A stretch of 64,000 nt of DNA from Escherichia phage vB_Eco_QOTSP, in sequence record OY720014. One strand, 5' to 3'. Shown here piece by piece: positions 51,176 through 52,769 of this stretch. Both the position numbers and the translations under genes were made by a program. The notes under the pieces were generated by a model. It was not told where the DNA came from. It ran no database searches and was given only the letters and a program-made list of their open reading frames with translations. Position 1 is the first letter of the stretch; the number at the start of each line of letters is the position of its first letter.

Positions 51176-51248
51176 TGGGAATTAGCCAAGTTGGTAAGGC
51201 ACTGGATTTTGATTCCAGGATGCAAAGGTTCGAGTCCTTTATTCCCAG
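51176..51248 (+). tRNA. tRNA-Gln (UUG)
   Basis: Cloverleaf: acceptor TGGGAAT/ATTCCCA, anticodon loop TTTTGAT, T-arm AAAGG-TTCGAGT-CCTTT. Confidence 0.85.
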
Positions 51249-51249
51249 C

Positions 51250-51336
51250 GCGAGAATGGTCAAATTGGTAAAGGCACAGCACTTAAAATGCTGCGGAATG
51301 ATTTCCTTGTGGGTTCGAGTCCCACTTCTCGCACCA
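51250..51336 (+). tRNA. tRNA-Leu (UAA), long variable arm, encoded CCA
   Basis: Acceptor GCGAGAA/TTCTCGC, anticodon loop CTTAAAA, T-arm GTGGG-TTCGAGT-CCCAC. Confidence 0.85.
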
Positions 51337-51341
51337 AATTT

Positions 51342-51415
51342 GCGGATATCGTATAATGGTATTACCTCAGACTTCCAATCTGATGATGTGAGTTCGATTC
51401 TCATTATCCGCTCCA
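51342..51415 (+). tRNA. tRNA-Gly (UCC)
   Basis: Acceptor GCGGATA/TATCCGC, anticodon loop CTTCCAA, CCA encoded. Confidence 0.85.
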
Positions 51416-51461
51416 ATTTATGACTCGTCGTGAGACGCTCAGTTCTTTATTAGGGACTGAT

Positions 51462-52070
51462 ATGCATTTTTATCTTTATAAAATAACAAATAAAATTAAT
51501 AATAAAATTTATATTGGTGTGCATTCTACCGAAAATTTAGATGATGGATATATGGGTTCTGGTAAATTATTAAAAAGAGCCCAAGATAAATATGGTATAG
51601 AAAATTTTTCTAAAGAAATATTAGAGTATTTTGACGATAAAGAATCTATGCTTGAAGCCGAGAAAAATATTGTCACAGAAGAGTTTTTAAATAGACCAGA
51701 TGTGTATAATTTAAAACTTGGAGGTGAAGGTGGATGGGATCATATAAATAATTATCCTATGACAGATCAGCAACGCGAATTAATTTCATTGGGTGTTAAA
51801 AAGGCGCATTCTAACGGAAAATTAAAAGGATGGTCTTCAAATGGATTAATGAAGAATGGCTTTGCTGGTAAAACTCATTCTCAAGAAGCTAAACGTAAAA
51901 TAGCAAAAGCAAACGAAGCAAAAGTTTCTGCGGATGAAAGAAAAAGAAGAATAGAAATTTCTAAATTATATGATTTTTCTAAACGTGGCGAATTGTCTAA
52001 ATATGCTAAGCATATTGGCGTAAGTCATACTCAAGCAAAAAGAATTCTAAATCAAATTAACAATATATAA
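51462..52070 (+). CDS. segB: GIY-YIG homing endonuclease (SegB-like) inside the tRNA cluster
   Basis: GIY-YIG motif YLYKITNKINNKIYIGVHS; start taken at ATG 51462 (ORF track start 51420 overlaps tRNA-Gly). Confidence 0.8.
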   Translation: MHFYLYKITNKINNKIYIGVHSTENLDDGYMGSGKLLKRAQDKYGIENFSKEILEYFDDKESMLEAEKNIVTEEFLNRPDVYNLKLGGEGGWDHINNYPMTDQQRELISLGVKKAHSNGKLKGWSSNGLMKNGFAGKTHSQEAKRKIAKANEAKVSADERKRRIEISKLYDFSKRGELSKYAKHIGVSHTQAKRILNQINNI

Positions 52071-52076
52071 ATATTT

Positions 52077-52166
52077 GGAGGCGTGGCAGAGTGGTTTAAT
52101 GCACCGGTCTTGAAAACCGGCAGTCGCTCCGGCGACTCATAGGTTCAAATCCTATCGCCTCCGCCA
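52077..52166 (+). tRNA. tRNA-Ser (UGA), long variable arm
   Basis: Acceptor GGAGGCG/CGCCTCC, anticodon loop CTTGAAA, CCA encoded. Confidence 0.85.
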
Positions 52167-52172
52167 GTTTTT

Positions 52173-52248
52173 GCTGATTTAGCTCAGTAGGTAGAGCACC
52201 TCACTTGTAATGAGGACGTCGGCGGTTCGATTCCGTCAATCAGCACCA
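52173..52248 (+). tRNA. tRNA-Thr (UGU)
   Basis: Acceptor GCTGATT/AATCAGC, anticodon loop CTTGTAA, T-arm GGCGG-TTCGATT-CCGTC. Confidence 0.85.
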
Positions 52249-52249
52249 A

Positions 52250-52324
52250 GGCCCTGTAGCTGGAAGGTTCAAGCAAGCGACTCATAATCGCCAGATGGTG
52301 GTTCAATTCCACCCAGGGCCACCA
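52250..52324 (+). tRNA. tRNA-Ile (CAU anticodon; Met-like by sequence)
   Basis: Acceptor GGCCCTG/CAGGGCC, anticodon loop CTCATAA. Confidence 0.8.
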
Positions 52325-52333
52325 AATTAATTT

Positions 52334-52420
52334 GGGGAGTTATCCCGTAGAGGTAGCGGTGTGGACTGTAAATTCATTGTCATTGCGACTCGGGTGGTTC
52401 GACTCCACCACTCCCCACCA
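52334..52420 (+). tRNA. tRNA-Tyr (GUA), long variable arm
   Basis: Acceptor GGGGAGT/ACTCCCC, anticodon loop CTGTAAA, T-arm GGTGG-TTCGACT-CCACC. Confidence 0.75.
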
Positions 52421-52424
52421 ATTT

Positions 52425-52499
52425 GGATGTGTAGCTCAATGGCAGAGCGATCGCCTGTTAAGCGATTGGTTATAGGTTCGAATCCTATCACGTCCGCCA
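52425..52499 (+). tRNA. tRNA-Asn (GUU)
   Basis: Acceptor GGATGTG/CACGTCC, anticodon stem ATCGC/GCGAT, loop CTGTTAA. Confidence 0.8.
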
Positions 52500-52503
52500 A
52501 ATT

Positions 52504-52519
52504 TGTGACAACTGTCACA
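52504..52519. promoter_or_regulatory. perfect TGTGA-N6-TCACA palindrome (CRP-consensus-like) in tRNA cluster spacer
   Basis: TGTGACAACTGTCACA seen directly; function unknown. Confidence 0.3.
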
Positions 52520-52613
52520 TTAATATCTACTTGACGCGATTATAGGGGTTGAACTGATCACTCTTCTCTTAATTTCGTGTGAAGACATCTTGATTGTTGG
52601 AGTAGGTATTAAT

Positions 52614-52689
52614 GTGGCCGTAGTTCAGTTGGTAGAACTCGAGATTGTGATTCTCGTAGTCATGGGTTCGACTCCCATCGGTCACCCCA
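52614..52689 (+). tRNA. tRNA-His (GUG), no encoded G-1
   Basis: Acceptor GTGGCCG/CGGTCAC, anticodon stem CGAGA/TCTCG, loop TTGTGAT. Confidence 0.8.
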
Positions 52690-52693
52690 ATTA

Positions 52694-52769
52694 CGGGGCA
52701 TAGCTCAGAAGGAAGAGCAAGGACCTTCTAAGTCCTAGGTCGTAGGTTCGATCCCTACTGCCTCGACCA
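52694..52769 (+). tRNA. tRNA-Arg (UCU)
   Basis: Acceptor CGGGGCA/TGCCTCG, anticodon stem AGGAC/GTCCT, loop CTTCTAA. Confidence 0.85.

Follow-up and report, generated by a model that had tools for sequence, protein, structure and literature searches.

A chimeric GIY-YIG endonuclease gene in place of tRNA-Pro in the tRNA cluster of Escherichia phage vB_Eco_QOTSP

Gene content of the tRNA cluster

The tRNA cluster of Escherichia phage vB_Eco_QOTSP (sequence record OY720014) combines ten tRNA genes with a gene for a GIY-YIG endonuclease, which stands where a close relative encodes tRNA-Pro. The window, the whole stretch of DNA analysed, has 64,000 nucleotides (nt), and its first letter is position 1. 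ARAGORN, applied to the whole window, found ten tRNA genes, all on the plus strand, and confirmed the identities and coordinates given in an initial annotation made from the sequence alone. The cluster begins with tRNA-Gln(UUG) (51176-51249), tRNA-Leu(UAA) (51250-51336) and tRNA-Gly(UCC) (51342-51415). A gap of 661 nt separates these from tRNA-Ser(UGA) (52077-52166), tRNA-Thr(UGU) (52173-52248), tRNA-Ile2(CAU) (52250-52324), tRNA-Tyr(GUA) (52334-52420) and tRNA-Asn(GUU) (52425-52499). A second gap of 114 nt precedes tRNA-His(GUG) (52614-52689), which is followed by tRNA-Arg(UCU) (52694-52769). As previously claimed, tRNA-Pro is absent; ARAGORN detected none in the entire 64 kb.

Nine of the ten genes, among them those for Gln, Leu, Gly, His and Arg, match the Rfam family RF00005 with 59-74 bits and E values of 1e-11 to 1e-15 (Infernal), the Gln, Leu and Gly trio with 59-67 bits. 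For tRNA-Tyr, Rfam gave a weak clan match alone (tRNA-Sec, 30.9 bits), yet the gene is 87/87 identical to the tRNA-Tyr of phage T6, and ARAGORN called Tyr, Asn and His alike. The best E. coli match of the CAU tRNA is annotated tRNA-Ile (81.6% identity, full length), and an identical gene in phage U115 is annotated tRNA-Ile2. On these grounds the label Ile(CAU) appears reasonable and holds. Matches to sX4, YrlA and Plastid-ycf2, obtained at a permissive Rfam threshold, were sub-threshold, overlie tRNA genes and were rejected.

Anatomy of the endonuclease gene

The gap between tRNA-Gly and tRNA-Ser contains a gene for a free-standing homing endonuclease of 202 amino acids (aa) (51462-52070, plus strand). 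The open reading frame (ORF; 51420/51462-52070) scores 26.8 bits against Pfam GIY-YIG (PF01541), above the cutoff of 22.6, and matches PHROG 314, 'homing endonuclease', with 1.5e-55, in agreement with the GIY-YIG gene proposed earlier for the Gly/Ser junction. An upstream in-frame ATG at 51420 would yield an alternative product of 216 aa. The start at 51462 is favoured because of a Shine-Dalgarno (SD) sequence, the 202-aa length of the homologues and the numbering of Y17 and G19 in T6 SegB (PMC13096335). A leader of 46 nt (51416-51461, plus strand) precedes the gene and is 45/46 identical to the T6 segB leader. It contains a predicted 9-bp hairpin (51439-51460; z about -2.3), which sequesters the SD sequence AGGGA (51452-51456); a terminator-like match of a scan to the same positions was re-read as this hairpin. 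An SD hairpin is also predicted in the homologue of Klebsiella phage KEN39 (Jiaodavirus), with compatible base changes. In T4 segB, this position is taken by another hairpin, which is stronger (-19.4 kcal/mol). A role of the T4 hairpin over the ribosome-binding site in low expression has been proposed (PMC2330249).

The catalytic-domain core common to T4 and T6 segB extends over 51476-51750 on the plus strand and agrees with T4 segB at 273/275 nt. When the DNA was compared with T4 segB from the ATG without gaps, identity on either side of this core was at random level. Identity to T6 segB amounts to ~98% over 51416-51750, including the leader and the first codons (MHFYLY). For T4 and T6 alike, the similarity to segB stops abruptly just past the GWDH codons and is at random level beyond. 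The N-domain (94 aa) is identical to T4 SegB at 91/94 positions (97%) and to T6 SegB at 93/94 (99%), and shares 73% with the Jiaodavirus Seg proteins of KEN39 and M12a. The C-domain shares 24% with T4 SegB and 25% with T6 SegB in a forced global alignment, and 60% with the Jiaodavirus Seg proteins. BLASTP against T4 SegB aligned residues 15-131 of the long ORF (83% identity, the first ~100 near-identical), and no alignment to T4 SegB was found past residue ~117 of the 202-aa form.

The C-terminal half (51751-52067, plus strand) comprises a flexible linker, a motif resembling NUMOD3 and, at its end, a helical module that resembles a helix-turn-helix (HTH). It is presumed to be the DNA-binding and specificity domain. 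The NUMOD3 match reaches 20.1 bits, just below the Pfam cutoff of 20.4. In metagenomic proteins of the same length (P0002-P0004, 202 aa), a C-domain of ~85% identity is joined to a Jiaodavirus-type N-domain. Over its last ~30 aa the protein hardly differs from its Jiaodavirus counterpart, and the DNA at 51959-52048 is 87-97% identical to KEN39. Altogether, four combinations of N- and C-domains were found in nature. The endonuclease gene is a natural chimera of a SegB catalytic-plus-leader module and a non-SegB binding module. The designation 'segB-like' in the initial annotation is apt for the N-terminal catalytic half, but not for the unrelated C-terminal half. The gene does not occupy the segB position either, which in T4 lies between tRNA-Ile and tRNA-Arg, and the published specificity of SegB cannot be transferred to it, given the unrelated C-terminal half.

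An AlphaFold2 (AF2) model (pLDDT 81.9) shows a confident N-domain, a low-confidence linker (residues 95-140) and confident helices (residues 141-201). The modelled N-domain matches I-TevI's catalytic domain (1mk0/1ln0) with a probability of 1.0 and TM scores of 0.64-0.66 (Foldseek). Helices 141-201 gave weak HTH-like fold matches alone (DeoR DNA-binding domain, homeodomains; probability at most 0.47). All residues invariant in 24 homologues are kept, Y6, Y17, G19, E67 and N83 among them, and the N-domain has the Tyr, Tyr-x-Gly, Arg/Lys, Glu and Asn residues typical of GIY-YIG enzymes of the I-TevI/Seg type. Y17 and G19 are the residues that were mutated to inactivate T6 SegB (PMC13096335). A sequence search of the PDB with the protein returned no match at E values up to 1, and a scan of IMG/VR returned 8 distant relatives alone (28-49% identity), none of them near tRNAs.

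Alleles of the cluster in related phages

The T4 record agrees with the initial annotation on a set of eight tRNAs with Pro between Gly and Ser. In transcription order, used throughout, T4 carries Gln, Leu, Gly, Pro, Ser, Thr, Ile, segB, Arg, rnaD and rnaC. The gene order in the window differs from it, and the T4 set is not matched: ten genes are present, Pro is absent, and Tyr, Asn and His are found. The earlier statement that Pro is absent and Tyr, Asn and His are additional is correct but incomplete. The divergence from T4 exceeds the three added tRNAs, and Ile(CAU) and Arg belong to another lineage too. The Leu and Gly genes are 100% identical to T4. tRNA-Gln matches T4 at 65/73 positions and U115 at 73/73, Ile(CAU) matches T4 at 47/74 and T2 at 75/75, and tRNA-Arg matches T4 at 49/75 and T2 at 74/76. 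Ser (90/90), Tyr (86/87) and Asn (75/75) likewise match T2. As Ile(CAU) and Arg are 63-65% identical to T4 but near-identical to T2, the whole block from Ile to Arg is a T2/U115-type allele and the Ile-segB-Arg segment of T4 an alternative cassette. Such a cassette was described for T2L by Brok-Volchanskaya et al. (PMC2330249).

T6 has the order Gln, Leu, Gly, Thr, Ile, Tyr, segB and Arg. T2 has Gln, Leu, Gly, Pro, Ser, a 133-aa ORF, Ile2, Tyr, Asn, Arg and an ORF termed ORF116. U115 has Gln, Leu, Gly, Pro, Ser, Thr, Ile2, Tyr, Asn, a spacer, His, Arg and ORF116, and no endonuclease. Its left flank is identical to the window at 336/341 positions and its right flank at 1015/1061; Gly, Ser, Ile2, Asn, the spacer, His and Arg are 100% identical. 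Past the common ...CCA-ATTTA, U115 contains ATTTA, tRNA-Pro and CT (81 nt), and the window a cassette of ~656 nt (51421-52076). By this alignment, U115 represents the endonuclease-free (empty-site) counterpart with 11 tRNAs including Pro, and the cassette in place of Pro is the one structural difference. The locus is polymorphic for presence and absence of the endonuclease, with U115 as the empty allele (flanks 96-98% identical); in Jiaodavirus, seg+ and seg- alleles exist as well.

At the downstream end, homology with KEN39 runs to ...AAATCAAATTA. A filler of 17 nt, ACAATATATAAATATTT (52060-52076, plus strand), then takes the place of tRNA-Pro and leads directly into tRNA-Ser, as the junctions of KEN39, T4, T2 and U115 show. 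No remnant of tRNA-Pro was found in the leader or the 3' flank, the leader being homologous to the seg leaders of T6 and Jiaodavirus.

The octamer TATAAATA, the T4 late-promoter consensus, lies in the filler (52066-52073), overlaps the endonuclease stop codon and ends 3 nt before tRNA-Ser. A second copy at 51743-51750 coincides with the exact breakpoint between the N- and C-domains. Ten copies occur on the plus strand in 64 kb, and chance may explain the placement.

Two alleles of tRNA-Pro(UGG) occur in Tequatroviruses, the T4/T2 type (T4 6208-6281) and the U115 type (U115 1346-1419), with 63/74 identical positions. Their 27-nt 5' half is identical, while the anticodon stem and the T-arm differ. 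Of the records, 282 fall in the band of at least 99% identity; the 90-95% band has 295, partial matches included. The type of tRNA-Pro allele could affect the susceptibility to the endonuclease.

Along its entire length, the region 50800-53600 shares 97-99% identity with the Escherichia phages AndreasVesalius, KAW1E185, KIT03, RB18, AR1 and TadeuszReichstein, and many further Tequatroviruses match 81-90% of its length. The annotation of RB18 lists the same ten tRNAs and a 'segB ... C-terminus divergent'. RB68 contains the same cluster without the spacer and His, and its endonuclease ORF is annotated 'truncated SegB-like protein'; the window protein is colinear end to end with its 202-aa homologues and so is not truncated. 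RB51 and RB68 carry the arrangement without His. It is present and annotated in RB18, AR1, KIT03, RB51/RB68 and ~50 other GenBank phages. The cluster is a known, widely sequenced Tequatrovirus allele, and as an arrangement nothing about it is unusual. Copies of the endonuclease gene with at least 99% identity were found in ~55 records, against 447 records with the contiguous Gly-Pro-Ser allele, which is the majority.

AR1 has ~440 extra bp in the same region, and Shigella phage CM8 has an annotated HNH endonuclease there. Mobile nuclease genes evidently have a hotspot in the tRNA cluster. T2 (NC_054931, 3213-3746, minus strand) retains the first 14 nt of tRNA-Thr after Ser, followed by the 133-aa ORF T2_137. 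This Seg relative lacks a GIY-YIG domain, is 33% identical to the C-terminal half of the window protein and has the same SHTQA HTH motif. T2_137 represents a third, degenerate endonuclease insertion in the cluster.

Proposed target and homing

T4 SegB recognizes 27 bp at the 3' ends of tRNA genes (GGTTCRANTCC ... CCAR) and cuts after CCAR. It shows a strong preference for the tRNA-Asn of T2L and achieves near-100% inheritance of its own gene with loss of recipient markers (PMC2330249). The exact 27-bp preferred site, GGTTCGAATCCTATCACGTCCGCCAAA, occurs in the window at the 3' end of tRNA-Asn (52475-52501, plus strand). It carries G6, A16, G18, A26 and A27, and the Ser site of the window differs at exactly those five positions, the same as those reported to differ between the Asn and Ser sites (PMC2330249). 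With the preferred site intact in tRNA-Asn, this phage should be a recipient for T4/T6 SegB.

The T6 cassette starts after Tyr at ...CCA-ATTT^ATGACTCG and replaces Asn. The cassette in the window starts at the identical junction, ...CCA-ATTT^ATGACTCG, after Gly and replaces Pro. A chimeric query made of the DNA of both C-domains found 195 records and 195 places, with both endonuclease types in no phage. The two types behave as mutually exclusive alleles.

Homologues of the binding module recur in similar surroundings. KEN39, Raoultella phage M12a and three P0002 contigs have the order tRNA-Gly(UCC), gene, tRNA-Pro(UGG), which places five homologue loci at the Gly/Pro junction. In pzk-kv19, a Jiaodavirus without the gene, the sequence reads Gly-CCA-AATTA-Pro; the KEN39 gene is a clean insertion in the same 5-nt spacer, and its stop codon falls inside tRNA-Pro. 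More distant relatives (46-55% identity) are located between Pro(UGG) and Ala (Erwinia phage FBB1, P0011), between Pro(UGG) and Gln (P0009, two contigs), between Pro(UGG) and Pro(CGG) (P0042), or at loci without adjoining Pro (P0007, P0034).

Since the cassette flanks are identical in the window and in U115, any site by which the enzyme could leave its own genome uncut at this locus must overlap the Pro interval. From this deduction and the recurrent Pro neighbourhood of the binding module, tRNA-Pro or its junctions are proposed as the target. The best explanation overall, with a probability of about 0.6, is a U115-type operon in which Pro was replaced by a chimeric endonuclease cassette retargeted to Pro or its junctions. 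The protein would be an active homing endonuclease that keeps the cleavage chemistry of SegB, and the swapped C-terminal domain would confer a different preferred target. In gene-less genomes (U115, T2 and T4, for example), this target would overlap tRNA-Pro or its junctions. The endonuclease would cut the Pro-bearing allele during mixed infection, and recombinational repair from the donor would copy the gene in and delete tRNA-Pro. Loss of Pro would make the carrier immune, in parallel with T4/T6 SegB, which prefers Asn and whose cassette replaces Asn. Expression is probably held low: the gene is part of the tRNA precursor transcript, and its ribosome-binding site is covered by a hairpin.

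Several points weigh against this explanation. The target of the variant is a deduction. The Jiaodavirus homologues keep tRNA-Pro right beside the gene, so the two can coexist without deletion of Pro, and the site may extend across the Gly-Pro junction instead of lying within Pro. Among the six distinct contexts in which the distant homologues occur, two (P0007 and P0034) have no adjoining Pro. Part of the targeting may reside in the common catalytic half, since SegB is relaxed for tRNA T-loops and the T-loop core motif GTTCRANTC is present in nine of the ten tRNAs. This motif also occurs in rnaC, with 13 sites in the window against 4.3 expected. Carriers could form a single clade, in which the gene was inherited vertically. 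Finally, the NUMOD3 match is just sub-threshold and the HTH call depends on weak fold matches.

A wider reading regards the two endonucleases as paralogues with one catalytic-plus-leader module and unrelated binding modules, placed in alternative slots of a single 1.6-kb tRNA operon. Each would delete the tRNA gene that it targets: Pro in the window, Asn in the case of T4/T6 SegB. It is possible rather than probable. If true, domain shuffling between selfish nucleases would directly edit the tRNA sets of T-even phages, including the anti-defence Tyr, Asn and His. During mixed infection, conversion between the two alleles would run both ways, and the pair would be a natural demonstration that a swappable C-terminal module sets the target choice of GIY-YIG enzymes.

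Alternative explanations

The gene might instead be inactive or in decay, a remnant handed down vertically within a single clade, and the absence of Pro an old deletion unrelated to present nuclease activity. Some records annotate a 'truncated SegB-like' protein, and the product is 19 aa shorter than T4 SegB; copies of at least 99% identity could reflect one clade, and T2 carries a clearly degenerate relative without the nuclease domain. Decay is at odds, however, with end-to-end colinearity with the 202-aa homologues, with an ORF that is intact in ~55 records and keeps all family-invariant residues, and with a confident two-domain model. The gene-less close relative U115, with flanks of 96-98% identity, shows a presence/absence polymorphism. 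A remnant is considered unlikely.

T6 SegB drives segmental amplification of neighbouring anti-defence genes (PMC13096335). A gene kept mainly as a break-maker for amplification of such tRNAs, not for homing, would accord with the leader and catalytic module common to the window and T6 SegB and with the identical tRNA-Tyr (PMC13096335), and a private 79-bp tandem duplication is found ~600 bp upstream of it. Within the window, though, neither tRNA nor seg sequence is seen to be amplified; the 79-bp repeat stands alone, without an adjoining SegB-type motif, and the activity in T6 was shown for another C-domain. This role is also compatible with homing and no true alternative to it, and as the main reason for keeping the gene it appears quite improbable.

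Least credible is a T4 segB orthologue relocated within the cluster with unchanged specificity (tRNA T-loop/CCAR, tRNA-Asn preferred): the 97-99% identical catalytic domain, the leader common with T6, the GenBank names segB or SegB-like and a SegB cleavage preference set partly by CCAR at the cut site (PMC2330249) speak for it, but the C-terminal half is unrelated (24-25%) and, in other phages, forms a separate lineage joined to a different N-domain, the position differs from both T4 and T6, and the window keeps the exact 27-bp SegB site in tRNA-Asn that T4 and T6 have lost.

The Asn-His spacer and the remaining operon

The full spacer between tRNA-Asn and tRNA-His covers 114 nt (52500-52613). 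Within it, covariation and folding delimit a conserved, unannotated structured RNA element of 96 nt (52518-52613, plus strand), which always ends at position -1 of tRNA-His. The minimum free energy of folding has a z score of -4.4 (0/200 shuffles). All 8 sequences compared, from three genera (Tequatro-, Jiaoda- and Karamvirus), keep a closing stem of 14 bp and two inner hairpins; in them, 27 pairs are 98.9% paired and five are doubly compensated; slid controls reached ~50%. A covariance model matched solely 5' of tRNA-His, at 12 loci, and nowhere else in the 162 kb searched. A repeated processing element was rejected on this account, and a relationship to rnaC/rnaD was rejected at a local alignment score of 8. 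No Rfam family for the spacer was found at a permissive threshold. The spacer sequence occurs in 355 phage records. Together with His, it forms an indel module of ~190 bp, which is absent from RB68, T2, T4 and T6.

At its 5' end (52505-52519), the spacer contains a perfect palindrome TGTGA-N6-TCACA, TGTGAcaactgTCACA, which resembles the core site of the cyclic AMP receptor protein (CRP). Among the 8 aligned spacers, this hairpin is intact in the window (Tequatrovirus) copy alone.

The tRNA-His gene has a T at position -1 (52613-52614), as in KEN39, ZX13 and EnC07; E. coli hisR encodes G-1. C73 is kept in the phage tRNA-His. From its sequence, the mature phage tRNA-His may be without the main identity element that histidyl-tRNA synthetase (HisRS) recognizes. 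A literature search for a phage tRNA-His without G-1 gave nothing relevant.

The region 51080-53480 is a Tequatrovirus polycistronic tRNA operon with a middle-type promoter, ten tRNAs, the endonuclease, one further ORF, rnaD, rnaC and a terminator. The T4 cluster including segB is transcribed from a middle promoter just upstream (PMC2330249). A corresponding element (51082-51106, plus strand) consists of a MotA-box-like TGCTTTA (51082-51088), a spacer of 12 nt and TATTAT (51101-51106), and we infer that it is this middle promoter because it matches the T4 consensus. The ~100 nt upstream of tRNA-Gln are ~98% conserved with T4, T2 and T6. A scan for internal sigma-70 promoters gave 10 sites against 9.2 expected, no better than chance.

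Downstream of tRNA-Arg, inside the tRNA/stable-RNA transcript, lies the further ORF, ORF116, of 116 aa and unknown function (52788-53138, plus strand; PHROG 3355, 6.7e-52). It separates tRNA-Arg from rnaD and is present in T2, RB68, RB18 and U115. T4 and T6, in which Arg abuts rnaD, have no equivalent. The genes rnaD (species 2 RNA; 53138-53252, plus strand) and rnaC (species 1 RNA; 53259-53397, plus strand) are 115/116 and 137/139 identical to their T4 counterparts. A hairpin with a T-run resembling an intrinsic terminator follows (53448-53481, plus strand; hairpin 53448-53471, 10-bp stem, seven G-C pairs) and is likely the end of the operon. In T4, the transcript ends past the gene for species I RNA (PMC2330249).

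Upstream of the operon, the 79-bp duplication mentioned above is perfect and in tandem (50703-50781 and 50782-50860). It frameshifts a conserved ORF of 171 aa (PHROG 2290, RB32ORF135c-like) into ORFs at 50486-50803 and 50808-51089. In all related phages the unit is present once (a span of 212 nt against 291 nt here). Either a private mutation or an artefact of assembly accounts for the duplication.

Roles of the tRNAs and implications

The tRNAs of T4 are classically explained as reading A-ending or rare codons. The U115-type set contains eight anticodons for such codons (UUG, UAA, UCC, UGG, UGA, UGU, UCU and CAU/Ile2), seven of which are present in the window, Pro being the missing one. Tyr, Asn and His, with GUN anticodons, are outside this pattern. 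The anti-phage system Septu cleaves tRNA-Tyr, and extra copies of the T6 tRNA-Tyr restore growth (PMC13096335). A replenishment or decoy role is plausible for the Tyr, Asn and His tRNAs. The cluster would supply decoding capacity, and Tyr, as shown for the identical T6 gene, and perhaps Asn and His may also replenish tRNAs hit by host nucleases directed at anticodons or variable loops.

The endonuclease is a natural domain-swap partner of SegB, the one endonuclease of this locus characterized biochemically (2008) and functionally (2026). The two enzymes are near-identical in the cutting half but differ in the binding half and in their slot within the operon, and the pair offers a ready-made experiment on the retargeting of GIY-YIG enzymes. 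It also bears on selfish nucleases that add or remove tRNA genes in phage genomes. No description of a domain-swapped endonuclease and the predicted retargeting to the Pro slot was found in the searchable literature, and a literature search on 'SegB-like' and tRNA found nothing. Caution is advised with the ~55 database entries annotated segB, SegB-like or segD, to which neither the name nor the specificity of SegB is transferable.

Comparison with known systems

T2 has Pro, whereas the window has Thr and His, of which T2 lacks His and retains 14 nt of Thr; between Ser and Ile2, T2 carries the nuclease-less Seg remnant. SegB of T4 and T6 is encoded in the same operon and orientation as the window endonuclease, starts at the same junction, replaces one tRNA gene and has a hairpin over its ribosome-binding site. 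It differs in the C-terminal ~108 aa, which are unrelated, and in the slot, Ile/Arg in T4 and Tyr/Arg in T6 (the Asn slot) against Gly/Ser here. The T4 and T6 genomes lack the preferred Asn site, whereas the window retains it in its tRNA-Asn.

Jiaodavirus and metagenomic Seg proteins (KEN39, Raoultella phage M12a, P0002-P0006) resemble the window gene in a homologous leader, a site directly 3' of tRNA-Gly(UCC) and a homologous C-domain (60-85% aa identity), with an almost identical terminal HTH region. The Jiaodavirus enzymes differ in the type of catalytic domain (73% aa identity) and in keeping Pro directly downstream, and the linker of KEN39 Seg is 18 aa longer. I-TevI, from the td intron of T4, has the same N-terminal GIY-YIG fold and probably the same two-domain design, in which a flexible linker leads to a C-terminal DNA-binding part with terminal helices and a motif of the NUMOD3 kind. 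Identity in the catalytic domain is ~25%, however, and the window enzyme is free-standing and has no evident zinc finger.

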